Source: an uncultured Prevotellaceae bacterium
GTDB taxonomy: Bacteria; Bacteroidota; Bacteroidia; Bacteroidales; Bacteroidaceae
Assembly (NCBI GenBank): GCA_905202115.1
Contig: CAJKQZ010000001.1
Coordinates: 1 to 43,877 of the forward strand
DNA length: 43,877 nt
Direction: 5' to 3'
Shown piece by piece: positions 1-39,977 of this stretch. The position numbers and the translations under genes were made by a program. The notes beneath the pieces were generated by a model. That model was not told the DNA's origin. It was given only the letters and a program-made list of their open reading frames with translations, and ran no database searches. Every line of letters starts with the position of its first letter. Positions within the stretch are counted from its first letter, which is position 1.

Positions 1-79
1 ATCTCAGACATATTTTTTGCTACATATACACATGCTGATTTTCAAGTGCTTGGCGAGTGACCGTTTTTGTCTGCAAAAC
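1..79 (+). repeat. dispersed intergenic repeat, copy A (5' part cut off by the window edge)
   Basis: It starts inside the right hairpin arm: 'atctcagacatattttttgctacatatacacatgctgattttcaagtgcttggcgagtgaccgtttttgtctgcaaaac'. It aligns base-for-base with the 3' halves of copies B-H. Confidence 0.9.
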
Positions 80-326
80 CACGTGAATTTCCGGTATTTT
101 TATTAAAGGTGTCTATGAAACTGTTCAATACTATAAAAAATGTGACTTTGTGAGTATGGATATTCATTCAACTTAAACCTCAATGCAAACAGCTTGAATT
201 TATCCAGAAATTCGTTCTAAAAACCGATACAAGGTTTTGGAACGAAAAATGATTTCGGTATTAAAAATACATGTATATATACGTCTCCTATAGTTTTTCG
301 TATATTGAAAATAAATTCAGTTTTAA

Positions 327-358
327 ATTGTATACATAAAAAATACTTAGTACTTTTG
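327..358 (+). promoter_or_regulatory. candidate Bacteroidota sigma-A promoter for lplA and the gcv operon
   Basis: Exact -7 box TAnnTTTG ('tacttttg', 351..358) lies 37 nt upstream of the ATG. 'attg' lies 20 nt upstream as a weak -33. Confidence 0.4.
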
Positions 359-394
359 AACTCAATGTTTGGTACGAAATAAATAGACAATAGG

Positions 395-1369
395 ATGTAT
401 TATTTAAAACTTCCGCAGATTGGTACACAGAAGTTGTCGTTCTATCTTGCAACAGAGGAATATGCTGCAAGATATCTGGAGCCGGACCCTATATTCTTTT
501 ATTGGCAGGTTGAGCCGAGTGTGATAATCGGACGGAACCAAAACATTGATAAAGAAGTTAATCTTGATTATTGCAGGGAGCAGGGGATAAATGTTTTTCG
601 TCGTAAAAGCGGTGGCGGATGTGTATATGCCGACAAGAGCAATGTCATGCTCGCATATATAGCCAAAGGAGAAGATGTGCAGCTTACATATTCTAATTAT
701 ACAACTTTGGTGGTTAGTGCATTGAAACGAATGGGCTTTAATGTGCAGGCAACGGGACGGAACGACATAGTGGTGGACGGAGGAAAGGTTAGCGGTTCCG
801 CTTTCTATCATCTTCCTGGACGAAATATCGTTCATGGAACTTTGCTTTACGATACAAATATGCGGAACATGGTGGCAAGCATTACTCCGTCGAATGAAAA
901 GCTTGTGGCAAAAGGTGTGGAAAGTGTCAGAAGTAGGATTAACTTGCTGAAAGATTATACCGCTCTCACGCTTGATGAGATAAAGGATAATTTGCGCACA
1001 ATGCTGTGCTGCGATATCATATCGCTCGGCGATGACGACTTGGAAAGAATCCGCGAGATTGAAAAATCCTATGTGTCCGAAAGCTTTATTTATGGCAAAA
1101 GCAAGGCGTGGAATCACGTGCGTAGAAGTCGTATAGAAAATTGTGGTGACGTAGAAGTACGTTTGCGCATAGTGCAAGGAAAAATCGAGGCTGCGGAACT
1201 GGCGGGAGATTATTTCCTGCTTCGCGATACGGACGAGGAACTGTCTAAAGCCATGCTGGGAGCCGAACTTGAAGAAAGTTCGCTTTTGTCCTGTTTTGAA
1301 AAATTTCCTCCCGAACAGTGTGTCAGAGGATTGAAAACAAAAGATTTAATAAGACTTATTCTTAGCTGA
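395..1369 (+). CDS. lplA: lipoate-protein ligase A family protein
   Basis: 324-aa ORF with an LplA-type catalytic pattern, including 'RRKSGGGCVYAD' (RRxSGGG-type lipoyl-AMP motif) and 'GGKVSGSAF'. It lies directly upstream of gcvT-gcvH, whose H protein is the expected substrate. Confidence 0.85.
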   Translation: MYYLKLPQIGTQKLSFYLATEEYAARYLEPDPIFFYWQVEPSVIIGRNQNIDKEVNLDYCREQGINVFRRKSGGGCVYADKSNVMLAYIAKGEDVQLTYSNYTTLVVSALKRMGFNVQATGRNDIVVDGGKVSGSAFYHLPGRNIVHGTLLYDTNMRNMVASITPSNEKLVAKGVESVRSRINLLKDYTALTLDEIKDNLRTMLCCDIISLGDDDLERIREIEKSYVSESFIYGKSKAWNHVRRSRIENCGDVEVRLRIVQGKIEAAELAGDYFLLRDTDEELSKAMLGAELEESSLLSCFEKFPPEQCVRGLKTKDLIRLILS

Positions 1370-1416
1370 TAATAAAATATATTAACCATAATAACAGATA
1401 AAACAATAAAAATACC

Positions 1417-2526
1417 ATGAATGTTTCTGATCAAACGGCAAACAAAAAAACCTGCCTTTACGACCGTCATGTGGAGTTAGGGGCAAAGATAAGTCCTTTC
1501 GGGGGCTTCGACATGCCTATCCAATATAGCGATATTATTACAGAGCATAATGCCGTGCGCAATGATTGCGGAGTGTTCGATGTGTCGCACATGGGAGAAG
1601 TTTCGGTAAAGGGGCCCGACGCCGAACGGTATGTGCAGCATATATTTACAAATGACATAGAGAATGCGCCAATAGGTAAGATATATTACGGGATAATGCT
1701 CTATCCCGACGGAGGAGCCGTGGATGATTTGCTCGTTTATAAAATGGGAGAACAAGACTTCTTTCTTGTCATAAATGCAGCAAACATAGATAAGGATCTT
1801 GCCTGGATGCACGAAAACTCAAAAGGTTTCGATGTCGAGATAAACGATTTGAGCGGTTACTACGGGCAATTGGCCGTGCAAGGACCTAACTCCGAACATG
1901 TGGTGGAAAATGTGTTGCAACTTGATGTAAAGGATTTGGCTTTCTATACATTTAAGACCATTGAAACAGACGGACAATGTATAATAGTAAGCCGCACCGG
2001 CTATACAGGTGAAGACGGCTTTGAAATATATGGCAACCACTCATATATCGTAAAGTCGTGGGATAAACTTATTTCCAGCAAACAAGTCTTGCCTTGCGGG
2101 CTTGGAGCAAGAGATACATTGCGTTTTGAAGTAGGGCTCCCGCTTTACGGTCAGGAATTGAGCAAAGAAATTTCTCCGATAGAGGCGGGATTGGGCATAT
2201 TCGTTAAAACAGAAAAGCCCGATTTCATCGGCAAAGAAGCAATGATCAAGCAAAAATCCGAAGGCACACCATATAAAGTGGTCGGTATTGAACTTGATGA
2301 TAAGGCAATTCCCCGTCATGGGTATGAGGTGGAATGCGACGGAAAGGTCGTAGGTACTGTAACTACGGGATATAATTCTATATCTACAGGCAAAAGTGTT
2401 GCTATGGCATTGGTGGAGACTTCTTATTCACGACAAGGAACTCGATTGGACGTGAAAATTCATCGGAAGTTGCACTCCGCTGTTGTTACAAAGAAAAGAT
2501 TCTATGAAAAGAAATATAAAAAATAA
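1417..2526 (+). CDS. gcvT: glycine cleavage system aminomethyltransferase (T protein)
   Basis: 369 aa with typical GcvT motifs ('PIQYS', 'FDVSHMGE', 'RTGYTGEDGFEI'). It sits in operon context with gcvH and gcvP. Confidence 0.93.
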   Translation: MNVSDQTANKKTCLYDRHVELGAKISPFGGFDMPIQYSDIITEHNAVRNDCGVFDVSHMGEVSVKGPDAERYVQHIFTNDIENAPIGKIYYGIMLYPDGGAVDDLLVYKMGEQDFFLVINAANIDKDLAWMHENSKGFDVEINDLSGYYGQLAVQGPNSEHVVENVLQLDVKDLAFYTFKTIETDGQCIIVSRTGYTGEDGFEIYGNHSYIVKSWDKLISSKQVLPCGLGARDTLRFEVGLPLYGQELSKEISPIEAGLGIFVKTEKPDFIGKEAMIKQKSEGTPYKVVGIELDDKAIPRHGYEVECDGKVVGTVTTGYNSISTGKSVAMALVETSYSRQGTRLDVKIHRKLHSAVVTKKRFYEKKYKK

Positions 2527-2538
2527 AAATTTACAACT

Positions 2539-2916
2539 ATGGCAAATGTATTGAATGACTGCTTATATGCAAAGTCGCACGAATTTGTTCGCGTTGAAGG
2601 CGAATATGCTTATGTCGGTATAACCGATTATGCACAACAGCAACTGGGCAACGTTGTTTATGTGGATATGCCCGAAGTTGGTGATGATGTTACGGCTAAT
2701 GAAGAGTTCGGAGCCGTAGAAAGCGTCAAGGCCGCAAGCGACTTGATATCGCCTGTTAGCGGAACAGTAGAGGAGGTAAACGAAGAGCTGGAAGACGACC
2801 CTGGTATTATAAATGCCGACGCTTTTAAGAACTGGATTATAAAAGTGAAACTTTCCGATAAATCAGAACTCGAGAAATTGCTTAATGCCGAGCAATATCA
2901 AGAGATTTGTAAATAA
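2539..2916 (+). CDS. gcvH: glycine cleavage system H protein
   Basis: 125 aa with the lipoyl-lysine motif 'AVESVKAASDL' and the typical H-protein length. Confidence 0.93.
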   Translation: MANVLNDCLYAKSHEFVRVEGEYAYVGITDYAQQQLGNVVYVDMPEVGDDVTANEEFGAVESVKAASDLISPVSGTVEEVNEELEDDPGIINADAFKNWIIKVKLSDKSELEKLLNAEQYQEICK

Positions 2917-2927
2917 AAAAGATAATT

Positions 2928-4253
2928 ATGAGCCAAAAATATTTGCCTCATACAGAAAGCGATTTATCGGAAATGCTTTCAGTCACTGGCGTAAGTTCAT
3001 TGCAGAATTTATATGATGACATTCCCGATAATCTTAAATTGAAAGGCGATTATGATTTGCCTTCTGCAATGTCGGAATTGGAAATACGTAAGACATTTGC
3101 TTCGCTTGCAGAGAAAAATAAGGTACTTACATGTTTTGCCGGAGGTGGAGTATATGATCATTATATACCTGCCGTTTCAGATTACATAGTTTCCCGCTCG
3201 GAATTTCTTACCTGCTATACGCCTTACCAGGCGGAAATATCGCAGGGAACCTTGCAATATATTTTCGAGTATCAAACGATGATGGTTGCGCTTACCGGAT
3301 TGGAAATTTCAAATGCAAGCTTGTACGACGGAGCCACAGCTGCAGCAGAAGCAATGATGACAGCCATTGCTGTTACCAAGAAAAAGTCACGGGTTTTGTT
3401 ATCTGCAACTCTGAATCCGAGGGTCATCAAAGTGGTTGAAACGTATGCAAAATTTAATGGTGTTAAGCTAACTGTCATTCCCGAGAGCGACGGAGTTACA
3501 GACCTCGAAGCCATGCGCGTAGAGTTAGCTGTGGGCGATGTGGCTGGAGTTATATTGCCGGAGCCTAATTACTATGGGATTGTTGAGGACTTTACAGGCG
3601 TTGCCGACGATATTCATGCAGCAAAAGCTGTTATGATTGTGCATTGCGTGCCTTCGGATTTGGCTTATCTTAAAACTCCTGGAGAGTGGGGAGCTGATAT
3701 AGCCGTAGGCAGCGGGCAGTCATTGGGCTTATCTATGTCTTATGGTGGTCCATACGTAGGTTTTTTCTGTGCTCGAAAGAGTATTTTAAGAAAAATGCCA
3801 GGAAGAATCGTCGGAGCTACGGTTGACTCTAAAGGACGTCGTGCGTTTTGTCTTACAATGCAAACCCGCGAGCAGCATATCCGTAGAGAAAAAGCGACTT
3901 CTAACATTTGTTCTAATCAAGGAGTAATGACGCTGTATATAGCGATATATCTTTCGCTTATGGGTAAAAGAGGATTGCAAGAAGCCGCAGCGATTTCTTA
4001 TTCTGGTGCACATTATCTGTATAAGGCTCTTATGGATAGTGGGAAATTTAAACAGGTTTATAGCGCTCCTTTCTTTAATGAATTTTGTCTTGAAGCGAAG
4101 TTCGATTTAAATGAATGGGAACGCATTTGTACCGAGAACGGAATTATGGGAGGAATAAGAATAGATAATACGAATCGATTATTATTCGCCGTTACAGAAG
4201 TAAATACAAAAGAAGATATGGATAAACTCGTATCTTTAACGAATTTGTTATAG
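2928..4253 (+). CDS. gcvPA: glycine dehydrogenase (aminomethyl-transferring) subunit 1
   Basis: 441 aa with a split P-protein alpha-subunit pattern ('TCYTPYQAEISQGTLQ', 'GGPYVGFF'). It lies between gcvH and gcvPB. Confidence 0.9.
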   Translation: MSQKYLPHTESDLSEMLSVTGVSSLQNLYDDIPDNLKLKGDYDLPSAMSELEIRKTFASLAEKNKVLTCFAGGGVYDHYIPAVSDYIVSRSEFLTCYTPYQAEISQGTLQYIFEYQTMMVALTGLEISNASLYDGATAAAEAMMTAIAVTKKKSRVLLSATLNPRVIKVVETYAKFNGVKLTVIPESDGVTDLEAMRVELAVGDVAGVILPEPNYYGIVEDFTGVADDIHAAKAVMIVHCVPSDLAYLKTPGEWGADIAVGSGQSLGLSMSYGGPYVGFFCARKSILRKMPGRIVGATVDSKGRRAFCLTMQTREQHIRREKATSNICSNQGVMTLYIAIYLSLMGKRGLQEAAAISYSGAHYLYKALMDSGKFKQVYSAPFFNEFCLEAKFDLNEWERICTENGIMGGIRIDNTNRLLFAVTEVNTKEDMDKLVSLTNLL

Positions 4254-4265
4254 AATAGTTGCGTT

Positions 4266-5725
4266 ATGAATAATAAATATTATGGCAAATTGATTTTTGA
4301 ATTGTCACATCCGGGACGTATTGGCTATTCACTGCCAAATAATGGAGCGGAAAAATATTCTGTTAAAGAATTAGATGAAAATTTGATAAGGAAAGAGGAT
4401 TTGTCGTTGCCCGAAGTAGATGAGCTTACTGTTGTGAGACATTATACAAATATGAGCAACAATAATTTTGGCGTAGATACCGGTTTTTATCCATTGGGAA
4501 GTTGTACAATGAAGTACAATCCCAAAATAAATGAAGAAGTTTGCCGGATTCCTCAATTTGCAAAACTTCATCCGCTTCAGCCGGAAAATACAGTTCAAGG
4601 AGCATTGGAAATATATTATGAACTCCAGTCCGCCCTTTCTCGTATTTGTGGAATGGAGGAATTTACTCTTAATCCTTTTGCCGGGGCTCATGGAGAATTG
4701 ACGGGCTTAATGATAATAAGGGAATATCATATTAGCCGAAATGATAATAAACGTACAAAAATAATAGTTCCTGATTCTGCTCACGGCACAAATCCTGCGT
4801 CGGCTGCACGTTGCGGCCTTCAAGTTATAGAGGTAAAAAGCAAAGAAGATGGCAGAATTGACGTTGAAGAATTGAAAAACCTTTTAGGAGATGATATAGC
4901 GGGAATGATGATGACTAATCCTAATACTTTGGGGCTTTTTGAATATGATATACCTGAAATCGCAAAGTTGATTCATGGTTCAGGAGGCTTGATGCAAATC
5001 TTAATCCGCTGCTCGGTGCTTGTCGTCCTGGAGATATGGGTTTTGACGTAATGCACTTGAATTTACATAAGACATTTTCTACCCCTCACGGTGGAGGGGG
5101 CCCCGGCGCCGGTCCTGTCGGCGTTCGTAAAGGTTTGGAACAGTTTTTACCTAACCCTAAAGTTGTAAAAGGAAAAGATAATGAGTATGAAATTGTATGT
5201 TCCGAAAAAGCAATAGGTAGTATTTCTGAGCAACTCGGCAATTATGCTGTTTTGTTACGTGCATACTCATATATACTTACAATGGGCAAAGAAAATTTGA
5301 AACAAATAGGTCCGTTATCCGTCCTGAACGCTATGTATGTTAGAGAAAAGCTTAGAGGCAAATACGAATTACCTATAAATTCTCTTTGTAAGCATGAGTT
5401 CGTTTTCAATGGATTAAAGGATAAGTCTACAGGAGTTACGACTCTTGATATAGCAAAACGATTATTGGATTATGGATTTCATGCACCTACTATCTATTTC
5501 CCATTGTTGTTTCATGAAGCTATAATGATAGAGCCTACAGAGAGCGAATGTAAAGAAACGTTAGACGAGTTCATAGAAACGATGCTGTTAATAGCAGACG
5601 AAGCGGTTAATAACCCTGAATTAGTTAAGACAGCTCCTCATAATACTCCTATTTCTCGTTTAGATGAAGTGAAGGCAGCCCGTGAACCGCAACTTACATA
5701 CAAAGAATTAAATGAAGCTCTGTAA
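4266..5725 (+). pseudogene. gcvPB: glycine dehydrogenase subunit 2, reading frame broken near 4989-4996
   Basis: Two overlapping ORFs (4266..5051 and 5036..5725) together cover one GcvPB. The first carries '...[13 protein letters not shown]...[11 protein letters not shown]...NPNTLGLFE...'. The second frame, read upstream of its ATG, gives '[39 protein letters not shown]', which includes the PLP-lysine motif. The total span of 1460 nt is not a multiple of 3. Confidence 0.75.
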
Positions 5726-5730
5726 ACCAA

Positions 5731-7107: not shown

Positions 7108-7148
7108 CTTTCTGTAACTATAATGTAATTAAATAATAAATAAATAGA

Positions 7149-8201: not shown

Positions 8202-8217
8202 GACGTTGCAATTCGGT

Positions 8218-9547: not shown

Positions 9548-9750
9548 GAAAAGATTTTTTAAGGACCGGCTTCCTGCGAAAAAAAATATTTTTTCGTGTG
9601 GTAAAAAACTTCCCGCAGGAAATTGAAAATACAAGGGAGATAATCGAAAATATGTCTGAGATAATTCAAAATATCTCAGACATATTTTTTGCTACATATA
9701 CATCTGCTGATTTTCAAGTGCTTGGCGGGTGACCGTTTTTGTCTGTAAAG
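9548..9750 (+). repeat. dispersed intergenic repeat, copy B (full)
   Basis: Conserved core runs 9600..9749. The palindrome arms are 9647..9663 and 9672..9688. It lies between the convergent fcl and lipid-kinase genes. Confidence 0.92.
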
Positions 9751-9812
9751 TCCGACTACTTTTTGTGTAAAAAGACAATAAATATAATGGCCGGCCGGAT
9801 ATTAGTTGTCAA

Positions 9813-13101: not shown

Positions 13102-13310
13102 GAAAAGATTTTATCCTGAGCCGGACTTCTCAAAGAATAATATTTTATTTTTTTGCATGGTAAAAAACTTCCCGCAGATAATTGAAAATACAAGGGAGAT
13201 AGTAAAAAATATGTCTGAGATAATTTAAAATATCTCAGACATATTTTTTACTATATATACACCTGCTGATTTTCAGGTGTTTGGCCACTGACCGTTTTTG
13301 TCTGCAATAC
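13102..13310 (+). repeat. dispersed intergenic repeat, copy C (full)
   Basis: It has the same module order as copy B. It lies 45 nt after the OMP gene's own terminator and carries the 'caggtg/ggccactg' sub-variant. Confidence 0.92.
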
Positions 13311-13555
13311 TTGTTGGTAAAACAGCGGATTTTTATAGGTCTTTATTTCTTTTTTACTCAAAGGATTTTAAATTTAAAATAGCAGTTGATTAGGGATTAC
13401 TTCTTTGTATGTAATTTCTATTGAGCTCGAAAGATTTTTAATTTCAAAAAAGGTTTTCGAGTTTTTGGAACAATAGTCCTTTGTCCTATTGCAACTCTAA
13501 ATATTGTGGGTGAAGAAAGATTTCTGTTTTACTTATTAAAATACGAAATAAGTTG

Positions 13556-17098: not shown

Positions 17099-18424
17099 AT
17101 GAACAACGGTAACAAGGGAATAAATAGCGCGGAAGTTTTACGCAAAGTAGAGCGTTACGAAAATATGCTTTGTGACAACACAAAAGTATATTTCGACGAA
17201 GACGATCTGCTTGATGTTGCGGAATACTATTATTATGATATGTCTAAAGAAGCCGAAGCTCTGCGTTGTTTGGACTATGCATTGAAGTTACACCCTGAGT
17301 CATTGCCTGCGAGGCTTCGGATTGCTGAGATAAAATATTTTCAGGGAAAAACTTCCGAGGCATGGTCTCTTCTTAAATCTATTTCCGAGCAGGAGGATCC
17401 CGATGTGCAATATTTTTACGGTTTGTTTTCTTTAGAAGAGAAAAATCTGAAAAAGGCCGAAGAATATTACAGAAAGGCATATTCCCTTGAACAAGGCACA
17501 GGTGTGGATTTGTTTTGCAGTATTGTGACCGATTATCTGGAACATGACATAATCGACGGCCTTGATAAATGGTTTAATCTTTTGCCAGATACATATCAAA
17601 GCTATCCGCGCGTTGTAGAAGTTAAAGTTTCGTATCTGCAAATGGCCGGCCGTTTGTCTGAGGCGGTAAAACTTGTTGAAAAGCAGATTGACAACGAGCC
17701 TTATAATGTGGATAATTGGACGGATTTGACCAAACTTTATATCCAAATGGGAGAGTTCGGAAAAGCAAAGGAAAGTAATACCTATATATTGGATATAGAA
17801 CCGAACAACCATGTGGCTTTGTGCTTGTCGGCCGAGATAGAGTTTCATCAGGGCAATATGGAGCATGCACATGAACTTTACGACAAGTACATAGCTTTGG
17901 AGGATAAAGATGCATATGCTTATTTTAACAATGCTTTCTGTCTTGTTTATATGTTTCGGTTTGATGAAGCTCTGCAACAGTTGCATTATGCGCAGAAATT
18001 CGTAGATGAAAAAAATACGGAACAACAGAACAAGATAAATCTGCTTACTATTTCCGTGCTTATTTGTATGGAAAAACTCGATGAGGCCGAAAGCGAACTT
18101 GAGAAAGCCCGACGCCTGGGATTGGACAAGGAAGATTATTTGTATAACAGTGCAATGATTCTTTACAAGAAAGGAAATGTATCTGAAGCCTTGAGCGTTC
18201 TTGATGATTTGATGACTTCAAAGCTGCAAACGGAGAATTTTCCGGAAAAGGTTTTCAATACGTATATAGCTCTTGGTGATTATGATAATCTATTGAAATC
18301 GTTAGATAAAGCGGTTTCGTTAATTCGTCAAAAGGATTCATATAAAGAGTTGGAGGAAAAGTGTTTTCCTTTTTATGCATTTTGTTATTATGAAAAGAAT
18401 GAAAGGGAAAAATTTCTTGAATAG
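17099..18424 (+). CDS. tetratricopeptide-repeat protein
   Basis: 441 aa with repeated 34-residue helical patterns rich in A/Y/L/E. Its ATG abuts the glnS stop (TAGATG), which suggests co-transcription. Confidence 0.65.
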   Translation: MNNGNKGINSAEVLRKVERYENMLCDNTKVYFDEDDLLDVAEYYYYDMSKEAEALRCLDYALKLHPESLPARLRIAEIKYFQGKTSEAWSLLKSISEQEDPDVQYFYGLFSLEEKNLKKAEEYYRKAYSLEQGTGVDLFCSIVTDYLEHDIIDGLDKWFNLLPDTYQSYPRVVEVKVSYLQMAGRLSEAVKLVEKQIDNEPYNVDNWTDLTKLYIQMGEFGKAKESNTYILDIEPNNHVALCLSAEIEFHQGNMEHAHELYDKYIALEDKDAYAYFNNAFCLVYMFRFDEALQQLHYAQKFVDEKNTEQQNKINLLTISVLICMEKLDEAESELEKARRLGLDKEDYLYNSAMILYKKGNVSEALSVLDDLMTSKLQTENFPEKVFNTYIALGDYDNLLKSLDKAVSLIRQKDSYKELEEKCFPFYAFCYYEKNEREKFLE

Positions 18425-19126: not shown

Positions 19127-19167
19127 ATTTATCATAGAATTATTTTTTTCTGAAAAGGAACTTGAAA

Positions 19168-19207
19168 AAACCGGTCTGAGATATGAAAAAATATCTTAGA
19201 CCGGTTT
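19168..19207 (+). terminator. hairpin after the DJ-1 gene, putative terminator
   Basis: The 17-bp stem is 'aaaccggtctgagatat'/'atatcttagaccggttt' with one G-T pair and a 6-nt loop. The T tail is weak ('ctttat'). It shares the 10-mer 'gtctgagata' with the dispersed repeat. Confidence 0.5.
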
Positions 19208-19350
19208 CTTTATACCTCTTCTGTTTTCTATAAAAACTCCCTGTTATTGTAAAAGTAAACTTCTGTGATGATCTCTTCTCCCATTAAATGTTCTTACTGC
19301 TTGGGTGAAAGCCTGAGGACAAATATTTCATCTTATGGCATGTTTTTTAT

Positions 19351-19523
19351 AGAAGAAAAATTTTTTTGCGTGTAAAAAAACTTCCCGCATGAAATTGAAA
19401 ATACAAGGGAGATAATCGAAAATATGTCTGAGATAATTCAAAATATGTCAGACATATTTTTTGCCATATATACACCTGCTGATTTCCAGGTGCTTGGCCG
19501 CTGACCGTTTTTGTCTGCAAAAC
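19351..19523 (+). repeat. dispersed intergenic repeat, copy D (full)
   Basis: It has the same modules, with one substitution in the right arm ('tatgtcagaca') and the 'caggtg/ggccgctg' sub-variant. It lies in the DJ-1/recG spacer. Confidence 0.92.
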
Positions 19524-19714
19524 AGTCATAGTTTCATTTGTCTTTAATGATTCTAAAGACAGTAAAACCGTTAATAACTTTGGGAAGTCACGGTATGGAT
19601 TATTTTCTTGATTTGAATGGGTAAGCTCTCTTTGTTTGGTGTTCGCCTTTTGCACAATTTGAGTTGAGGTTCCAATATAGACAGCGGCTCGGCAAAGAAA
19701 ATGAACAGGCTTAT

Positions 19715-19745
19715 TTTGCTTTGCTCTCGCCTTTTGCTATATTTG
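19715..19745 (+). promoter_or_regulatory. candidate promoter for recG
   Basis: TTTG (19715..19718), then 19 nt, then 'tatatttg' (19738..19745). This fits the TTTG/TAnnTTTG bipartite consensus and lies 120 nt upstream of the ATG. Confidence 0.5.
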
Positions 19746-19864
19746 CGTGTAATGTTGGAGTAACGGCGGGTATAAACGGTATTTATTCCCTATGCTCCCG
19801 ATAAATAATCTGTCATGGCAAAAAGTAACTATATGTTCTTTTGTTGTAAAGGTTGAATGTACGA

Positions 19865-26481: not shown

Positions 26482-26622
26482 TGTGCACATATCTTTTACA
26501 GACTTCGTCAATGTGACACTCAAAACTCTGTATTTGTCTTAAATCGATATAGAAAAGCATCTGTATTACCTGTGGGCATCTGTCATGAATATTGCTTGTG
26601 TAGAAAATCTTGTCGGTATTGA

Positions 26623-26727
26623 GGAAAACACTTTCCGCTTGTGAAAAAAATTATCTCAGACATATTTTAAAATATCTCAGAGATAATTCAAAATATGTCT
26701 GAGATAATTTTTCGGGCGTTTTTTGCC
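26623..26727 (+). repeat. dispersed intergenic repeat, copy E (rearranged, core only)
   Basis: The 57-nt near-perfect palindrome at 26651..26707 is made of the family's hairpin arms in swapped order. The 5' module is degenerate ('ctttccgc') and the 3' tail of about 70 nt is absent. Confidence 0.8.
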
Positions 26728-26732
26728 AGCGT

Positions 26733-26763
26733 GAAAAAAGCCACCTGACATTTTGTCAGGTGG
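26733..26763 (-). terminator. Rho-independent terminator for the TIGR02757 gene
   Basis: The 9-bp stem is 'ccacctgac'/'gtcaggtgg' with a 5-nt loop. On the minus strand it is followed by 'cttttttc'. Confidence 0.65.
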
Positions 26764-31661: not shown

Positions 31662-31733
31662 GTGATTAATACAGGTAAGGACGACGTTTTCTGTCATCTT
31701 GTTTTTTTGTATTAATAAGATTTCTTTTGTTAC

Positions 31734-31911
31734 AAAGAGATTTTTATAAAAATCTTATAAGGCAAAAAAGTTCCCGCAGATAGTTGAAAATACAAGGGAG
31801 ATAATTCAAAATATGTCTGAGATATTTTAAAATATCTCAGACATATTTTTTGCTACATATACATGTGTTGATTTTCAAGTGCTTGGCGGGTGACCGTTTT
31901 TGTCTGTAAAA
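31734..31911 (+). repeat. dispersed intergenic repeat, copy F (5' module shortened)
   Basis: The core from 'aaaaaagttcccgcag' (31765) through 'gtctgtaaa' (31910) is present. The 'ctgcgtgg' segment is missing. Confidence 0.9.
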
Positions 31912-32105
31912 TCGAACAACAACGTATTTCAATTTTTTCGGAAAGCAGTCTTTTTTCACTTATAAAAGTATTTTGGCAGGAAACTGGATATAGATTGAAA
32001 TATTTCCTTTCCGGTGATTTCTTACTGTGTCTGTTTTATTGATAAAAATGCTTGTCTTATATCGAACTTATGTTATTCTATTTCATTCCTATTGGTTTTT
32101 ATGGA

Positions 32106-32154
32106 TATTTTTGTGTGTATATCTTTCTTATTCGGCTAAAAAGCAGTAAATTTG
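32106..32154 (+). promoter_or_regulatory. two candidate -7 boxes for the DUF177-rpmF-fabH unit
   Basis: 'tatttttg' (32106..32113) and 'taaatttg' (32147..32154) both match TAnnTTTG. Confidence 0.35.
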
Positions 32155-32258
32155 CAGGCGAATTTGGCATGAACTTAACAAGGCTGTAAGAAAAGACGGT
32201 GAGACGTTGTTCATTTGCCAGTTTGCATAGAAAAAAGCTAAAACAGTCTTCAAAAAGA

Positions 32259-32738: not shown

Positions 32739-32750
32739 AAAATAACAGAA

Positions 32751-32936
32751 ATGGCACATCCTAAAAGAAGACAATCCAAAGCACGTACACTTAAGCGCAG
32801 AACTCACGATAAAGCAGTTGCTCCTACATTGGCTATATGTCCTAATTGCGGCGCATGGCATGTATATCATACTGTATGCCCTGAATGCGGCCATTATCGT
32901 GGAAAACTTGCTATTGAGAAAGAGGTTAACTCTTGA
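32751..32936 (+). CDS. rpmF: 50S ribosomal protein L32
   Basis: 61 aa starting 'MAHPKRRQSKARTLKRRTH', with the zinc-ribbon 'CPNCG....H.VCPECG'. Confidence 0.95.
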   Translation: MAHPKRRQSKARTLKRRTHDKAVAPTLAICPNCGAWHVYHTVCPECGHYRGKLAIEKEVNS

Positions 32937-32948
32937 CGTTAAGTGATA

Positions 32949-33956: not shown

Positions 33957-34128
33957 TAAAATCACCGGCTCTGAAAAAAGCGAATATTGAAAACAAAGCT
34001 TTGTTCTGGTATTTGCTAAAAATAAAACACCCTCTCGCTACTACCTGATAAACGGGAATAACGAGAGGGCTTTTGATAAAATTAGAGTTAAGCCGGAATA
34101 AAAATAATCCGTAAGTAATTATAAAGTT

Positions 34129-35010: not shown

Positions 35011-35053
35011 CATTACTAATTACAAATAAAAACTACTTCACCTAAATATAAAT

Positions 35054-36367
35054 ATGGGAAATTTAGTAGCAATAGTAGGTCGTCCCAATGTGGGCAAATC
35101 AACTTTATTCAACCGTCTTACCGAAAGCCGGCGCGCAATAGTCAGCGATGAAGCGGGAACAACGCGCGATCGCCAGTACGGAAAGGTAATATGGAACGGA
35201 AAGGAATTCTCGATTGTAGACACAGGAGGCTGGGTTGTCAATTCGGACGATGTGTTCGAGCATGAAATAAGGAAACAGGTGGAGATTGCAACCTCCGAGT
35301 CGGACGTTATACTTTTTGTGGTTGACGTAAACAACGGAATCACCGATCTCGACATGGAAGTAGCAGACATTTTGCGTCGCACCAAAACGCCCGTTATATT
35401 AGTATCGAACAAAGTAGACCATAATGAAAAGGATTATCTCTCGGCAGAGTTTTACAAGTTAGGGTTAGGCGCTCCCCATTCAATCAGTGCGGCAACCGGT
35501 AGCGGAACAGGCGATTTGCTCGATGTGATATTGGAAACATTGGGCGACCGTGAATTGAATGAAGAAGACGACAACATTCCCCGCTTTGCTGTCGTAGGCC
35601 GTCCGAACGTAGGAAAAAGCAGTATAATAAATGCATTTATAGGCGAAGATAGAAATATCGTGACCGATATTGCCGGAACAACGCGTGATGCTGTATCTAC
35701 GCGGTATACCAAGTTTGGATTCGATTTCTATATCGTCGACACGGCAGGAATACGCAAAAAGAACAAGGTCACGGAAGACCTTGAGTATTACAGCGTGCTG
35801 CGTTCCATACGCGCTATCGAGCAGGCCGACGTTTCCATTCTGATGATCGACGCGACCCAGGGAATAGGTACGCAGGATATGAACATATTCCAGGTAATAC
35901 AGCGCAATAACACGGGTTTGGTTGTAGTTGTCAACAAATGGGACCTTGTAGATGACAAATCGCACGAAGTTCAGATGAACTTCGAGAACGTAATTCGCCA
36001 GCGCATGGCTCCGTTTACGGACTTTCCCATAATTTTCGCTTCCGCACTTACCAAGCAGCGCATATACAAGGTTCTTGAAACGGCAAAGGACGTCTTTGAA
36101 AACCGTCGCTCGCGCATTCCGACGGCGAAACTTAACGATGTAATGCTGCCATTGATTACCGAGACGCCTCCTCCTGCTCTGAAAGGTAAGTATATAAAGA
36201 TAAAATACTGCACTCAGCTGCCTAACACGCGTATTCCGTCGTTTGCATTCTTTGCCAATCTGCCTCAGTATGTTAAGGAGCCCTATCGTCGTTTCCTCGA
36301 GAACCGAATCAGGGAGAACTGGAACCTTTGCGGCACGCCTATAAACGTTTTCATTCGTCAAAAGTAA
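35054..36367 (+). CDS. der: ribosome-biogenesis GTPase Der (EngA)
   Basis: 437 aa with tandem GTPase domains ('GRPNVGKST' twice, 'DTGG'/'DTAG', 'NKVD'/'NKWD'). Confidence 0.95.
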
Positions 36368-36371
36368 AACA

Positions 36372-36773
36372 ATGATATTACGGAATTATATTTTATTCGT
36401 GTGTTTTGCGGCCGTGCTCGCTTCCTGCAGCAATGAAAAGCAGGCGGAAAAGCATGAAACGCCCGAGGAGGTTGCACTCGCAGCGTACAACCACCTTATA
36501 AAAGACGAATATGAAGATTATGTGAAACTTGTTCATTCCGGCGACAGCATTACTGAAACCTACAGGCAAGGTTTGCTTGCTACGGTAAAACAGTTTATGG
36601 CCCGACAAAACGACGAGAAGAAGGGAATAAAATCGGCAAGCGTAGTAGACGAGAAAACAGTGTCGAACGACAATTACGCACTTGTGATGTTAATACTTAC
36701 TTATGGCGACAGCACTTCGGAAGAAGTGGCTGTGCCGGTTGTGAAAGTTAACGACGTATGGCGCTTGCGGTAA
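36372..36773 (+). CDS. hypothetical lipoprotein
   Basis: 133 aa with a lipobox-like signal 'FAAVLASCSN'. I recognised no family. Confidence 0.5.
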   Translation: MILRNYILFVCFAAVLASCSNEKQAEKHETPEEVALAAYNHLIKDEYEDYVKLVHSGDSITETYRQGLLATVKQFMARQNDEKKGIKSASVVDEKTVSNDNYALVMLILTYGDSTSEEVAVPVVKVNDVWRLR

Positions 36774-36994
36774 ATCAAGCAGAACAAAAAGAAAGTAATA
36801 TTTTCCGTGGCGGACTTTTTCATAGTTTGCACGATTTTTTATATTTTCGAATAATAAGGAGGCTATAATTTGAAATTTTTGATAGATTGTTATATTTTAA
36901 TCTATTTGTCTTTGAGATAATTTGATGTAAATTCGGCATAAACAGAAACAATTCCGGTAGAAAAATATAGGGGAAAACAATTTCGTAAAAAAAC

Positions 36995-37155
36995 ACTTCG
37001 CAGAAAAAATACTTTTTTCTGCGTGGTAAAAAAATTCCCGCAGATAATTGAAATTACAAGGGAGATAATTCAAAATATGTCTGAGATATTTTTTGCTATA
37101 TATACACATGCTGATTATCAAGTGTTTGGTCGGTGACCGTTTTTGTCTGCAAAAC
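36995..37155 (+). repeat. dispersed intergenic repeat, copy G (right hairpin arm deleted)
   Basis: It has the full 5' module, including a perfect 'cgcagaaaaaa-tac-ttttttctgcg' hairpin (36999..37023). A 21-nt deletion relative to the other copies removes the loop and right arm. Confidence 0.9.
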
Positions 37156-37306
37156 CAAACATAGTAAGGTATTGTCGATTTTGCGACGTGTAATTTATAC
37201 ATTAAATAAACCCTTAGAATTTCCCGATGTTTCATAACAAAGAGAAATACTAATGACCAAAAGGGGAAGTATATACTTAAAGAATATACAGTGCGTGCCA
37301 GCGTAT

Positions 37307-38074
37307 TTACTTTTGTTCTTCCTGTTCTGCTTTCTTAACCTTGCGGAACAAGTCGGAAGCAAATATAAAATTGTTAAGCTGTTTGTTTTCCGATGACATC
37401 ACATCGTCTTTGGTGCCTTGCCATTCTTTATGCCCGTTGTAAAGAAAAACAATGTTTTCGCCTATGTCCATGACCGAATTCATGTCATGGGTGTTGATGA
37501 TAGTCGTAATATTATAATCTTTTGTGATGCTGTGTATCAGTTCGTCTATAACTAAAGACGTTTTAGGGTCGAGGCCCGAGTTTGGTTCATCACAAAAGAG
37601 ATAACGCGGATTCATGGCAATGGCCCGTGCAATGGCGACGCGTTTCTGCATACCTCCGCTTATTTCACCAGGCATTTTGTTTTCTGCTTCCAGGAGGTTG
37701 ACGCGCTCAAGGCAGCTGAGTGCCCTGCGTTGCCTTTCTTTATAGGAATAGTTTGAAAACATGTCGAGAGGAAACCTTACGTTATCGACTACCGACATGG
37801 AATCGAACAACGCTGCACTTTGAAAAATCATTCCCATTTCCCTACGTAACAGTGTCCGTTCGTTCTTGTCCATGTTTACAATGTCGCGTCCGTCATAAAG
37901 AATCTCGCCGCTTGTAGGAACAAGAAGTCCGACGATACATTTCATAAGCACGGTCTTTCCCGAACCGCTCTGGCCTATGATGAGATTGGTCTTGCCTTTT
38001 TCGAATACGGTATCTATGCCTTTAAGCACATCCTTATCGTCGAATGACTTGTAAAGAGATTTAAGTTCTATCAT
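37307..38074 (-). CDS. ABC transporter ATP-binding protein, MlaF-like
   Basis: 255 aa with Walker A 'GQSGSGKT', signature 'ISGGMQKRVAIARA' and Walker B 'LFCDEP'. It is paired with an MlaE-like permease. Confidence 0.85.
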   Translation of the reverse strand: MIELKSLYKSFDDKDVLKGIDTVFEKGKTNLIIGQSGSGKTVLMKCIVGLLVPTSGEILYDGRDIVNMDKNERTLLRREMGMIFQSAALFDSMSVVDNVRFPLDMFSNYSYKERQRRALSCLERVNLLEAENKMPGEISGGMQKRVAIARAIAMNPRYLFCDEPNSGLDPKTSLVIDELIHSITKDYNITTIINTHDMNSVMDIGENIVFLYNGHKEWQGTKDDVMSSENKQLNNFIFASDLFRKVKKAEQEEQK

Positions 38075-38076
38075 AT

Positions 38077-38823
38077 TCAGGAGAGCAGTTTGGTGAGAAA
38101 CAAATCGGAAAAAAGTATAAGCATAGAACTCGATACAACGGCATTCGTACTGGCTTTTCCGACATTTATGGAACCGCCTTCAACCGTGTAGCCGTAATAC
38201 GAGGAAACGCTCGCAATTATAAAGGCGAAAAACAAAGATTTGATAACGCCCATCCATACAAACCACTGCGTAAAAGAATACTGCATTCCCGCCGTAAGGT
38301 CTGAAGCCGAAATGATATGTCCTATGTAAGCCGTTGCGTAGGCTCCTATTATGCCCGATACGGTGCTGAAAATAACAAGAAAAGGCATAATCGTTATCAA
38401 ACCGGCTATTTTAGGAAGAATAAGGAATGAGGCTGAATTTACACCCATTATATCGAGCGCGTCTATCTGCTGCGTCACGCGCATTGTTCCTATCTCCGAC
38501 GCTATGTTCGAGCCTACCTTTCCTGATAGAATCAGACACATAATGCTCGACGAAAATTCAAGAAGCATGATTTCACGCGTTACAAAACCCGAAGTCCAGC
38601 GGGGCATCCAGGCACTTTGCACGTTCAGTTTTATCTGGATACATATTACAGCTCCGATGAAGAAAGAAATGAGTAGCACGATAGCTATCGAGTTTACTCC
38701 CAATTGTTCCATTTCTTTGATGTATTGCCGCCAGAACATGCGCAGTCTTTCCGGACGGGAGAATGTGCGTCCCATAAGTTGCAGATAGCGGCCGAAAGCA
38801 GTCAGAAACTTATTTAATAACAT
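38077..38823 (-). CDS. ABC transporter permease, MlaE-like
   Basis: Polytopic membrane protein with MlaE-type segments ('REIMLLEFSSSIMCLILSGKVGS', 'MRVTQQIDAL'). The ATG at 38823 is preferred over the TTG at 38847. Confidence 0.85.
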   Translation of the reverse strand: MLLNKFLTAFGRYLQLMGRTFSRPERLRMFWRQYIKEMEQLGVNSIAIVLLISFFIGAVICIQIKLNVQSAWMPRWTSGFVTREIMLLEFSSSIMCLILSGKVGSNIASEIGTMRVTQQIDALDIMGVNSASFLILPKIAGLITIMPFLVIFSTVSGIIGAYATAYIGHIISASDLTAGMQYSFTQWFVWMGVIKSLFFAFIIASVSSYYGYTVEGGSINVGKASTNAVVSSSMLILFSDLFLTKLLS

Positions 38824-38887
38824 TGTAGTATGTGTTTTTACCTGCAATGCCCCTGTAAATCATTTTCCGTATGTTTTTATTAAGGAG

Positions 38888-38907
38888 CAAAAGTATTGAC
38901 AAAGGTA
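38888..38907 (-). promoter_or_regulatory. candidate -7 boxes for mlaE/mlaF-like operon
   Basis: The minus strand reads 'tacttttg' (38888..38895) and 'tacctttg' (38900..38907), 65-77 nt upstream of the ATG at 38823. Confidence 0.4.
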
Positions 38908-38950
38908 AGAAACTTTTCGTGTTACGGGCTGCAATACTATCATTTCTTTC

Positions 38951-38978
38951 TTTGTTAGGAGTTAAATTAGTAATTTTG
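38951..38978 (+). promoter_or_regulatory. candidate promoter for lptB
   Basis: TTTG (38951..38954), then 16 nt, then 'taattttg' (38971..38978), 19 nt upstream of the ATG. Confidence 0.4.
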
Positions 38979-38996
38979 TCAATAAAATAAATAAGC

Positions 38997-39785
38997 ATGG
39001 ACAGTTCAGACTCTAAGATGGTGTTGCGTACCGAGGGATTGATTAAACGTTATGGCAAGCGCACTGTCGTTAACGATGTTTCCTTCAATGTACATCAAGG
39101 TGAGATTGTTGGTTTGCTCGGCCCGAATGGGGCAGGGAAGACGACGTCGTTCTACATGACGACAGGCCTGATAAAAACAAACGGAGGACATATTTATCTT
39201 AACGACGAGGACATAACGGATTTTCCCGTTTACAAGCGCGCGCAATATGGCATTGGCTATTTGGCGCAGGAGGCGTCTGTTTTCAGAAAGATGTCGGTCG
39301 AGGACAATATTGCTTCTGTTTTAGAGATGACAGGCAAGCCTAAATCATATCAGCGCGAGAAACTCGAGAGTCTTATAGCCGAATTTCATTTACAGAAAGT
39401 GCGCAAAAATCTTGGCGACCGGCTTTCGGGAGGCGAGCGGCGCAGAACCGAGATAGCCCGTTGTCTGGCTATCGACCCTAAGTTCATAATGCTCGACGAA
39501 CCTTTTGCCGGTGTGGACCCTATTGCCGTTGAAGACATACAGTACATAGTATGGAAATTGAAATACCGTAACATAGGTATTCTTATTACTGACCATAACG
39601 TAGAGGAAACTCTTTGTATAACCGACCGCGCATATCTTCTTTTCGAAGGGCGCATTTTATTTCAGGGAACGCCTGATGAACTGGCTACCAACCAGATAGT
39701 CCGTGATAAATACCTTACAAACAGCTTCGAATTGCGCAAGAAAGATTTCCAGCTCATCGATAAGCAAAAAACGGTTGAAGAATAA
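38997..39785 (+). CDS. lptB: LPS export ABC transporter ATP-binding protein
   Basis: 262 aa with '[12 protein letters not shown]', '[12 protein letters not shown]', '[16 protein letters not shown]' and '[12 protein letters not shown]', typical of LptB. Confidence 0.9.
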
Positions 39786-39799
39786 GTGTAATAAAAAAG

Positions 39800-39977
39800 G
39801 TTTTAAAAAAATATTTTTTCTGCGTGGTAAAAAAGTTCCCGCAGCAAATTGAAAATACAAGGGAGATAATTAAAAATATGTCTGAGATAATTTAAAATAT
39901 CTCAGACATATTTTTTGCTACATATACACCTGCTGATTTTCAAGTGCTTGGCGGGTGACCGTTTTTGTCTGCAAAAC
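39800..39977 (+). repeat. dispersed intergenic repeat, copy H (full, closest to consensus)
   Basis: It begins about 15 nt after the lptB stop. The palindrome arms are 39873..39889 and 39898..39914, and the tail ends 'gtctgcaaaac' at 39977. Confidence 0.92.

Follow-up and report, generated by a model that had tools for sequence, protein, structure and literature searches.

A species-restricted intergenic repeat with an array of 13-nt palindromes in a human-gut Prevotella/Alloprevotella-like Bacteroidales species

Copies of one intergenic repeat can be found throughout the 43,877-nt stretch of DNA analysed here (the window), whose host is an uncultured human-gut Prevotella/Alloprevotella-like species of the Bacteroidales. 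Seven copies of a core of about 175 nt and one short variant (copy E) occupy eight of the 18 intergenic regions that are 100 nt or longer, each copy lying after the 3' end of a gene on the + strand. The eight places had been picked out in a sequence-only reading of the same DNA, and all are recovered by combining a repeat search (6-7 copies in register), a 16-mer, an nhmmer profile built from five copies, and BLAST, where the extent of each copy was set by repeat depth against about 0.9 Mb of the same species. The 16-mer, TGACCGTTTTTGTCTG, is invariant and occurs seven times in the window, 7/7 on the + strand, for a chance expectation of 0.39; with the profile, + is the best strand for 8/8 copies. 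The sole other repeated intergenic DNA in the window, by BLAST against the same 0.9 Mb, is a small unit at 19658-19746. Pairwise core identity is 90.1% among the window copies, with a mean of 91.6% among 96 copies from the species, so that the 90-95% first estimated was about right. The copies were also described as lacking a conserved ORF, in a window devoid of transposase, integrase and Cas genes; indeed, any given reading frame stays open in at most 3% of copies, and none of these genes is seen among the window genes.

Copy A (BLAST 1..82; nhmmer 1-80, profile positions 99-178; + strand) retains the 3' half, the window edge truncating an otherwise full-length copy that can be seen whole in two orthologous contigs, L086 and L210 (9516-9686). 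Copy B (BLAST 9569..9756; nhmmer 9577-9753, 197 bits; +) is full-length, of the L type and located in a convergent gap, with palindromic sites at 9651-9663 and 9672-9684. Copy C (BLAST 13126..13314; nhmmer 13141-13311, 183 bits; +) is also full-length, and its palindromic sites are at 13210-13222 and 13231-13243. In the full-length copy D (BLAST 19351..19524; nhmmer 19351-19525, 192 bits; +), the symmetric variant TATGTCAGACATA stands at the second palindromic site, resulting in one hairpin mismatch. Copy F (BLAST 31755..31918; nhmmer 31745-31914, 180 bits; +) has a full-length core with AGATTTTTATAAAAATCT in place of the 5' AT-palindrome. The core of copy G (BLAST 36975..37158; nhmmer 37006-37156, 135 bits; +) has a 21-nt deletion that takes out the second palindromic site and thus the hairpin; this deletion is polymorphic among strains, most of which have the undeleted form, and only two copies of that length class can be found in the species sample. 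Copy E (BLAST 26621..26763; nhmmer 26625-26725) is a short S2 variant without the 3' module, nearly palindromic, with three palindromic sites in symmetric order (26652-26664, 26673-26685, and 26694-26706), then a hairpin CCACCTGACA-TTTT-GTCAGGTGG. Its architecture differs from that of the other window copies and recurs at more than ten other loci. The + strand assigned to copy E is weak (33 bits vs 27 bits on the - strand with nhmmer, and - outscores + in several strains).

Copy H (BLAST 39804..40015; nhmmer 39806-39979, 196 bits; +), also full-length, serves as the reference for the sub-features, all given on the + strand. The repeated unit is about 330 nt long and consists of the sharply conserved core of about 175 nt and weakly conserved, unstructured flanks, the core carrying 13-nt palindromic sites (TATSTCWGASATA) at 21-nt spacing. 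A 5' AT-palindrome (A7-TA-T6) is found at 39805..39819, its A/T tract being conserved in the conservation profile; no covariation is detected for the bases outside it (own vs other complementarity, 2.15 vs 2.15 pairs), the observed complementarity being reached in 1047 of 2000 permutations. A degenerate first site, TACAAGGGAGATA, read from the sequence at 39856..39868 (profile position 56), stands 21 nt upstream of the next one. Within the element, constraint is strongest at the inverted 13-nt site pair TATGTCTGAGATA and TATCTCAGACATA with its 8-nt spacer (39877..39910), which together with the flanking A/T bases makes up a 17-bp hairpin. According to RNAalifold, this hairpin is near-invariant over 72 copies, with one exception at 2/17 pairs, and shows no base-pair covariation among them. 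Directly 3' of the hairpin comes a T6 tract (39911..39916), each T being invariant or conserved to at least 90%, then the 3' module (39917..39979), which contains TGACCGTTTTTGTCTG at 39956-39971. A conserved C-rich 5' segment, CUUCCCGCAG, precedes hairpin and T6 by about 45 nt, and about two thirds of copies carry CTAC (GTAG on the opposite strand) at a distance of 8 nt from the hairpin (profile column 121, C 64 / T 32). Judging from its layout, the hairpin with T6 is intrinsic-terminator-like, and the upstream A-tract would make it roughly bidirectional; a consensus terminator scan made no call on it, owing to pairing between the A and T tracts. The fold z-score of the element is -4.5 on the + strand and -6.1 on the - strand.

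Three architectures (L, S1, and S2) have the palindromic sites in common, with differences in order and orientation and a spacing that is always 21 nt. These sites are found within repeats in 487 of 498 cases in the species sample and exclusively so in the window. Their half-sites tolerate a G/C swap (GAGATA/GACATA), and the symmetric forms TATCTCTGAGATA and TATGTCAGACATA exist. Internal spacing is identical in 89 of the 112 full copies measured, most of the others being anchor artefacts, and a unit is deleted in only two.

Comparison was made with a metagenome harboring the same species (98% nucleotide identity to the window). A total of 292 further non-overlapping profile matches can be found in 0.89 Mb of its contigs, which were chosen for bearing a copy. 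They comprise 118 full copies, 119 at contig ends and, for the remainder, internal partials; the repeat interior is the break point of many contigs, and exact-pattern stretches number 109. Among sampled gaps, a copy is present in 58% of the convergent ones, the highest class, and in 39% of the divergent (promoter-to-promoter) ones. Outside this species, a search of 185,579 species-representative genomes with the repeat pattern gave no match, related species show neither copies nor comparable repeats at 80 syntenic loci, and no match is found in viral contigs, plasmids or phages. Neither Rfam, at gathering score, nor a literature search with the sequence strings returned a match. The proposal of an undescribed repeat of REP/BOX/Correia-like density is borne out.

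Across the species sample, orientation is random with respect to flanking genes, GC skew and adjacent copies. Copies are spread over all four classes of neighbouring-gene arrangement (28/23/26/33, 118 full copies considered), 49-51% agree with the G-rich strand, and adjacent copies point in the same direction in 46 cases and in opposite directions in 34. Upstream of the window, the nearest copy, about 5 kb from copy A, is on the - strand, GC skew being positive throughout that stretch. The 8/8 co-orientation in the window, taken earlier as strict, is a chance run, i.e., a local coincidence that does not characterise the family; given randomly oriented copies that number several hundred or more, chance alone predicts at least one run of this kind in each genome. 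The arithmetic of the attached probability (about 0.008) is correct, but it is post hoc and the run is bounded by the upstream - copy. Given this random orientation and the inverted copy on the positive-skew stretch, strand-biased transposition lacks support.

Copies are fixed at orthologous sites in about ten strains, and the strain comparison that had been called for yields no presence/absence polymorphism at nine sites. Between-strain pi is 0.0033 at the palindromic sites vs 0.030 at third codon positions, i.e., tenfold lower (binomial P = 1.3e-6), a constraint equal to that of first and second codon positions. Pi amounts to 0.006 in the T-run and 0.002 in TGACCGTTTTTGTCTG (0.0021 for 3' module/TGACCGTTTTTGTCTG), and the spacers and loop are hypervariable (0.07-0.08). 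Variation is concentrated in about 18 hot columns (12% of columns), which account for 46% of the differences that orthologous copies show between strains; the alleles of these columns are reshuffled from copy to copy, and multi-base variants, e.g., CG/TC, act as units. Short sequence tracts are exchanged between copies, and the swapping of spacer alleles that several copies have in common suggests gene conversion. Homogenising gene conversion alone could account for the low diversity of the palindromic sites, which could also reflect a host function instead of a selfish history.

The element is thus high-copy, intergenic, randomly oriented, absent from relatives and fixed in present-day strains. 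It is an undescribed repeat of a familiar kind of bacterial interspersed repeat, with no new mechanism. The evidence tips towards a species-restricted, non-coding repeat of the REP/BOX/BIME kind, once amplified as a non-autonomous selfish element, now evolving in concert and endowed with a hairpin- or palindrome-based activity. Amplification in this lineage would have relied on a mechanism that leaves no terminal inverted repeats or target duplications behind; movement would no longer be detectable, and concerted evolution would now proceed via ectopic gene conversion. The working part would be the 13-nt palindrome array (TATSTCWGASATA, 21-nt spacing), two sites of which would form the invariant 17-bp hairpin, then T6. 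Most likely, it may act as a roughly bidirectional intrinsic terminator or insulator against read-through transcripts, or as the recognition site of a protein that formerly mobilised the element or now binds it. These two forms of activity are non-exclusive. Against this reading, there is no direct sign of mobility among about ten strains (nine sites) or among 635 ORFs adjoining copies, which include no multi-copy (IS-like) protein gene, nor in the form of terminal inverted repeats or target duplications. Conservation is also much lower in the flanks than in the core, which a simple recent burst does not predict. The occupation of 39% of divergent gaps argues against a pure terminator role, and the terminator scan made no call on the hairpin.

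A host-domesticated array is considerably less probable, with the 13-nt palindromes as operators of a dimeric DNA-binding protein (a nucleoid-associated, insulator or topology factor) at hundreds of intergenic sites. Gyrase and IHF occupy REP/BIME elements in E. coli, and 21 nt corresponds to two helical turns. The near-perfect palindromes have symmetric forms and tolerate half-site swaps that disrupt hairpin pairing yet preserve a protein half-site, their spacing is constant despite the changes in order and orientation between L, S1, and S2, they are constrained like first and second codon positions with freely varying spacers, and orientation independence suits a role at the DNA level. The structured-DNA or protein-binding site put forward earlier is still compatible with these strongly constrained palindromes. 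However, the binding protein is putative, the sites are nearly confined to the repeat family, gene conversion alone could generate the diversity pattern, and the invariant hairpin and T-run are equally compatible with a role at the RNA level. It is unlikely that a single-strand HUH/Y1 enzyme (IS200/IS605-type PATE or REP/RAYT-REPIN-like) moved the element, in which case its recognised hairpin would be the inverted site pair. No terminal inverted repeats were found in the element, nor target duplications of at least 4 bp at fixed offsets, a lack that Y1 transposition would predict. Its centre is a perfect hairpin, and the nearby CTAC/GTAG is reminiscent of the REP GTAG head. Nevertheless, that tetranucleotide is not invariant, the hairpin is central and not subterminal at both ends, no Y1 gene is seen in the sample of about 0.9 Mb, where the ORF screen was aimed at multi-copy genes and not at Y1 domains, and the predicted strand or replication bias is missing. 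Random orientation and the lack of presence/absence polymorphism in about ten strains mean that the strand-biased Y1/IS200-605 idea, as initially formulated, fails.

Even less credit can be given to a large family of paralogous small-RNA genes resembling Bacteroides FopS, with a 5' single-stranded seed, then a terminator hairpin. Hundreds of copies are, to our knowledge, far above any known sRNA family. The segment CUUCCCGCAG upstream of a strong hairpin and U6 would provide a plausible sRNA of about 85 nt with a FopS-like layout (PMC11697453), and the fold z-scores are in line with it. Yet the flanks are unstructured, no base pair covaries, and a canonical TAnnTTTG -7 box is found at no fixed position on either strand of 91 copies, though the host does use this motif, e.g., TATATTTG upstream of recG. 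The absence of an Rfam match at gathering score further weakens the sRNA proposal, whereas the FopS authors report their consensus structure as deposited in Rfam (PMC11697453). Least probable of all, the copies could be native terminators of upstream + strand genes, alike for that reason. The position of all window copies, the terminator-like hairpin with T6, the high occupancy of convergent gaps and the similar GAGATAT...ATATCTC stem of ordinary terminators nearby (40104-40147; also the DJ-1 terminator) would fit. By contrast, the upstream gene points away in 52 of 113 full copies, 39% of divergent gaps are occupied, the upstream gene often has a terminator of its own, e.g., CGTGGC...GCCACG+T7 before copy G in contig L001, and about 140 nt conserved beyond the hairpin would be superfluous for termination.

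As regards known systems, REP/BIME elements of E. coli and other Proteobacteria are present in hundreds of intergenic copies, as short palindromic units in mosaic architectures whose hairpins can act on transcripts or bind host proteins. The repeat described here is likewise non-coding, combines palindromic units with other motifs in several architectures, and lacks target duplications. It differs by its sequence, its 13-nt unit with strict 21-nt spacing, its much longer core, its host phylum, its presence in divergent gaps (REPs lie mostly at gene 3' ends), and the absence of an identified RAYT in the sample of about 0.9 Mb. BOX elements of Streptococcus pneumoniae are made of boxA-boxB-boxC modules with a variable number of boxB. 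They are similarly modular, about 100-200 nt long, intergenic and species-restricted, with a stable predicted fold, hundreds of copies and no known transposase, but share no sequence similarity with the present repeat, in which the 21-nt register is fixed. Correia/NEMIS elements of Neisseria, which can carry terminator activity and an IHF site, are similarly dense, intergenic and of comparable size (about 100-160 nt); unlike the present repeat, they end in terminal inverted repeats of 26 nt and duplicate a TA target. Within the same order, the species-specific, intergenic BrickBuilt MITE of Porphyromonas gingivalis also combines a leader and a tail with short direct repeats, which measure 23 nt in BrickBuilt and 21 nt in the present element (PMC4596501). 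BrickBuilt occurs in 19 copies, contains 1 to 22.8 tandem units, ends in small inverted repeats and has promoter activity (PMC4596501), whereas the present repeat has hundreds of copies, a fixed unit number, and neither terminal inverted repeats nor a canonical promoter. FopS comprises 12-15 copies per genome, producing RNAs of about 65-70 nt from canonical promoters (PMC11697453), and thus differs from the present repeat in copy number, promoter motif and Rfam match. The two families are multicopy, intergenic and Bacteroidales-specific, and FopS members end in a terminator hairpin (PMC11697453).

The eight repeat copies proposed from the sequence alone (A to H, from left to right) are all recovered by a profile built from five of them, each scoring better on the + strand, and a repeat search of the window finds the family in register. 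The 16-mer TGACCGTTTTTGTCTG occurs seven times in the window, always on +, against a chance expectation of 0.39. Pairwise core identity among the window copies is 90.1%, in keeping with the 90-95% estimated by hand; no reading frame is conserved across copies, in agreement with the lack of a conserved ORF noted earlier, and no transposase, integrase or Cas gene is seen among the window genes, again as had been claimed. When every intergenic region was compared by BLAST with about 0.9 Mb of the same species, the repeated intergenic DNA of the window came down to these eight copies and one small unit at 19658-19746. The copies occupy 8 of the 18 window intergenic regions of at least 100 nt and are flanked by housekeeping operons (gcv, gyrA, glnS, recG, era/der); a serine palmitoyltransferase of CFB-group type is also encoded in the window and places the host in the Bacteroidales. 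Copy E has a different, nearly palindromic architecture (S2, see below), and its strand is weakly defined (33 bits vs 27, with - scoring higher in several strains). Copy G carries a 21-nt deletion, absent from most strains. Among public gene calls for metagenome contig slices of the species, several small ORFs of 44-71 aa fall within copies, on the - strand (L200 10764-10946 and 4439-4654, L004 2544-2678, L005 10983-11117); because no frame is conserved across copies, these calls are annotation artefacts. A small protein (MSEIIQNISDIFF...) starting from an ATG in the first full palindrome was likewise considered and dropped: about 70% of copies have a TAA stop at profile column 93, and no frame is open.

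In full copies (architecture L), the sharply conserved core starts at its 5' end with an AT-palindrome, A8-TA-T8, followed by TAAAAAAC-TTCCCGCAG and a degenerate first site, TACAAGGGAGATA. Two full sites, TATGTCTGAGATA and then TATCTCAGACATA, each lie 21 nt past the preceding site; a T6 tract comes after the second, and a 3' module of 60 nt ends in the invariant TGACCGTTTTTGTCTGCAAAAC. One full site is the inverted copy of the other, and with flanking A/T bases they pair into a hairpin of 17 bp, essentially invariant in 72 copies apart from a single exception at two pairs. This central hairpin is the sole structure found by RNAalifold, with zero compensatory changes. Several copies seemed by eye to form perfect hairpins around the 5' AT-palindrome as well, but a covarying stem there was dropped, since arms from the same copy pair no better than arms from different copies (2.15 vs 2.15 pairs). 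Two shorter architectures, S1 and S2, are made of the same 13-nt sites (consensus TATSTCWGASATA) in another order and orientation, always 21 nt apart, and 487 of the 498 sites of this type in the sample (about 0.89 Mb of same-species metagenome contigs chosen for carrying a copy) fall inside repeats. S2 copies lie between CCTGACA-N3-5-TGTCAGG hairpins that have A/T tracts (window 26728-26763; also, for example, L054, L056 and L079), and this composite of about 230 nt recurs as a unit; some of these hairpins resemble - strand terminators.

On either side of the core, conservation continues more weakly, for about 95 nt upstream and about 80 nt downstream. These flanks are always joined to cores, and profiles of the flanks alone match almost only beside cores or at contig ends, which disposes of the idea that they belong to an older, separate repeat family invaded by the core. 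Nor do they appear to hold a structured RNA, their fold z-scores of -0.5 being equal to those of control intergenic DNA. In a few copies (L050 at about 3875-3940, L110, L073 at about 10300) another palindromic module, GGTCTTTAAGGTCGTTAATGGCATTAACGACCTTAAAGACC and variants, takes the place of the usual 3' flank, a hint that the genome has one or more other repeat families.

Outside the window, the region was found by exact-protein look-up in many human-gut metagenome assemblies, one contig (L006) being 100% identical to it. One scan of metagenome contigs detected the strict 3' pattern in 109 stretches, almost all of them in assembly OHBJ01, where the same species is present with identity of about 98%. 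Longer contigs of the species, of 174-638 kb, are present in ERZ28595059 and ERZ27259310. In the 0.89-Mb sample, 292 non-overlapping profile matches were counted: 118 are full, 119 touch a contig end and the rest are internal partial matches, 57 of which were classed as short. The matches at contig ends indicate that assemblies break in the repeat. From the density in the window, the genome would hold several hundred copies. A further + copy lies about 1.2 kb past the right end of the window, between two - strand genes (L001 14899-15070); upstream of the left end, a - copy (L210 4530-4696) is met, then a + copy (L210 1809-1982). Beyond the species, the repeat pattern has no exact match in 185,579 species-representative genomes, and the best match there of a conserved LptB-like ATPase, among Alloprevotella, Prevotella or 'Bacteroidaceae' MAGs, reaches only 87% aa identity; on both counts, the source species seems to be missing from that collection. 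At 80 syntenic loci of related species there are no copies of the repeat and no comparable repeats of their own either. An apparent relative in Ihuprevotella (L171) turned out to be an ordinary terminator with a similar loop, searches of phages and plasmids gave no match in favor of such an origin, and the repeat is absent from the literature when looked for as a sequence string.

The main argument of the sequence-only reading was the strict co-orientation of the copies, which one of its three proposals, an element moved with strand bias by a Y1 transposase (PATE- or RAYT-like), would explain. Co-orientation is not a property of the family, since orientation in the sample is random. Full copies are found in all arrangements of flanking genes, namely (<,<) 28, (<,>) 23, (>,<) 26 and (>,>) 33. 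Of 173 copies, 49% lie on the G-rich strand of the surrounding 8 kb (51% at |skew| > 0.05 and 47% at > 0.1), and neighbouring copies share orientation in 46 cases and are opposite in 34. The first copy upstream of A, about 5 kb away, is on the - strand, yet GC skew is still positive there. Strand-biased transposition is rejected on these statistics. The co-oriented run consists of eight L-type copies plus E, and with several hundred randomly oriented copies, chance predicts about one run of this kind per genome; co-orientation in the window is a local coincidence. Local hopping or local gene conversion does not account for it either, neighbours being no more alike than random pairs (0.912 vs 0.916). 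Integron attC or VCR-like sites are uniformly oriented downstream of mobile gene cassettes; random orientation and flanking housekeeping operons exclude the repeat from that class.

Comparison between strains gives no sign of ongoing transposition, as all nine sites checked for insertion polymorphism are occupied in about 10 strains each. The single exception, L005, has the whole intergenic region replaced, with two extra genes. The replacement, about 3.4 kb long (L005 4892-8311; its orthologous stretch in the window is ~36774-37306, around copy G), is a strain-specific island between conserved genes; it holds a copy of the repeat in inverted orientation and, in one of the extra genes, a T9SS Por_Secre_tail sorting domain. 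Identity between paralogous copies is 91.6%, and 94% to the consensus, with an uneven spread of differences: there are about 18 'hot' columns, none outside spacers, loop or linkers, at which two to four alleles are common and shuffled among copies, linkage being limited to adjacent bases (e.g., CG vs TC). Orthologous copies from different strains segregate at these columns too, with 46% of events in 12% of columns. The simplest reading of this pattern would be frequent short-tract gene conversion among copies.

Regarding constraint, nucleotide diversity (pi) between strains is 0.030 at third codon positions, 0.003 at first and second codon positions and 0.023 in other intergenic DNA. The repeat core as a whole stands at 0.030, with 0.07-0.08 in its spacers and loop, 0.0033 in the two 13-nt palindromic sites, 0.006 in the T-run and 0.002 in TGACCGTTTTTGTCTG; the low values of these last three mark them as the protected parts of the repeat. 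Of 156 palindromic site-loci, only 1 segregates (binomial P = 1.3e-6). Such low diversity could be the work of selection, or of conversion that homogenises the copies from hundreds of identical donors. A functional site is favored by the placing of the variation, which spares precisely the palindromes and lies in their spacers.

Several classes of mobile element can be set against these data. A classical MITE, derived from a DDE transposon, would have terminal inverted repeats, target duplications and insertion polymorphism between strains, none of which is found. The inverted repeats present are internal (the hairpin and TTGAAAAT/ATTTTCAA), and up to 100 nt from the core, fixed offsets show no inverted match, whether specific to a copy or shared by the family. 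As for target-site duplications, a copy's own flanks match no oftener than those of other copies (k = 4 to 8, all offset pairs up to 100 nt, 91 copies), a test that might overlook duplications as short as 2-3 bp or with variable boundaries. As for an autonomous parent with the same ends, none of 635 ORFs near copies in about 0.9 Mb is multi-copy. PATEs have subterminal hairpins at both ends, and REPINs are inverted REP doublets with a conserved GTAG head; the present repeat has one central perfect hairpin formed by the inverted 13-nt pair, CTAC/GTAG adjoins it in only about two thirds of copies (column 121), and no Y1/RAYT gene flanked by repeats is seen within the window. A BrickBuilt-type minisatellite MITE, whose tandem short units vary in number between a leader and a tail, is set aside on the fixed number of units: internal spacing is 73 nt in 89 of 112 full copies measured and shorter in only 2, and the longer spacing classes are mostly artefacts in which the 5' anchor matched further upstream.

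A family of small-RNA genes was another of the original proposals. The whole window has no Rfam match at gathering score, which leaves out FopS and other described families, and an E-value threshold brings up nothing but hairpin look-alikes that stay below it (miRNA and snoRNA models, all short of their gathering scores). The Bacteroidetes sigma-ABfr promoter has TTTG at -33 and TAnnTTTG at -7. The latter motif is in use in the source species, for example as TATATTTG upstream of recG; within about 250 nt, on either strand, no 5-nt position bin holds it in 5 or more of 91 copies, and by this promoter test the copies are not independent sRNA genes. What the repeat does share, with elements of the REP/BIME/BOX type, is being high-copy, strictly intergenic, non-coding and species-restricted, with short palindromic units reused in modular architectures (L, S1 and S2), and it is with this class of interspersed repeats that it is best filed.

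As a member of the REP/BIME/BOX class, the repeat may be a non-autonomous selfish sequence, which we infer to have been amplified in the lineage by a route leaving neither terminal inverted repeats nor target duplications. It is now fixed and probably evolves in concert. Its active part would be the palindrome array with the hairpin. At the RNA level, a strong hairpin with U6 downstream and an A-tract upstream would make a plausible, roughly bidirectional terminator or insulator. The layout is that of an intrinsic terminator, with a 13-17-bp stem and then the invariant T6, and the consensus terminator scan made no call because the upstream A-tract pairs with the T-tract. Occupancy of gaps by copies is highest between convergent genes (58%) and still 39% between divergent ones, so that termination is not the whole story. 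At the DNA level, the phased array would suit a dimeric binding protein. REP/BIME with gyrase and IHF is a known system of protein-bound interspersed repeats. A Bacteroidales counterpart is conceivable, in which the repeat would not be junk: a dedicated DNA- or RNA-hairpin-binding protein would land on the 13-nt palindromes, which are phased at 21 nt and constrained to the degree of coding positions, and would mark at least a third of intergenic regions, the whole acting as a genome-wide transcription insulator or chromosome-organising signal; we consider this rather improbable.

By behaviour, the nearest known families are REP/BIME, BOX and Correia elements, and by taxonomy and layout BrickBuilt of P. 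gingivalis, and the repeat shares sequence with none of these four. Unlike Correia and BrickBuilt, the repeat lacks terminal inverted repeats and target duplications; unlike BOX and BrickBuilt, it has a fixed number of units; and unlike REP, it has a long core and no known RAYT. To our knowledge, interspersed repeats are poorly catalogued in gut Bacteroidales, above all in uncultured Prevotella-like species. A census of MITEs in Bacteroidota counts tens of thousands of genus-specific families (PMC11602168), such that a lineage-specific repeat is expected in kind. As it stands, the repeat adds one more example to a known class and involves no new mechanism. Its density, about one copy per 5 kb, suffices to break short-read assemblies of the source species, and gene callers already put spurious ORFs on its copies. 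Since copies visibly exchange sequence, they are also substrates for ectopic recombination. If the palindromes prove to be protein-binding or terminating, they would offer a species-wide handle on transcription-unit boundaries, and possible protein binding by such constrained, phased palindromes is the point of greatest interest.

Ordinary terminators nearby have a related GAGATAT...ATATCTC stem, and the repeat hairpin and native terminators may, speculatively, have a common origin. Stems related to the repeat palindrome are seen in a terminator at window 40104-40147 (CATCCGAGATAT...ATATCTCGGATG), bidirectional with A- and T-tracts on both sides, and in another after the DJ-1 gene at about 19166-19227 (CCGGTCTGAGATAT...ATATCTTGGACCGG). 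The small repeated unit upstream of recG (19658-19746), of about 83 nt, contains a canonical Bacteroidetes promoter (TTTTGC...TATATTTG) and is tandemly repeated, its copy number varying by strain with one extra unit in L204 and L207 (depth 11). At 4266-5725, GcvPB (glycine dehydrogenase subunit) is split into overlapping ORFs of 261 and 229 aa, while in other strains it is intact as a single 490-aa gene (L210 13872-15344); the split is a frameshift, so that in the source genome the gene is a pseudogene or its sequence contains an error. Finally, the TPR-repeat gene at 17099-18424 encodes 441 aa, likewise in L205, where a separate 54-aa ORF comes next, and 481 aa in most strains (e.g., L200 8511-9956), a strain-polymorphic truncation or frameshift near its 3' end.
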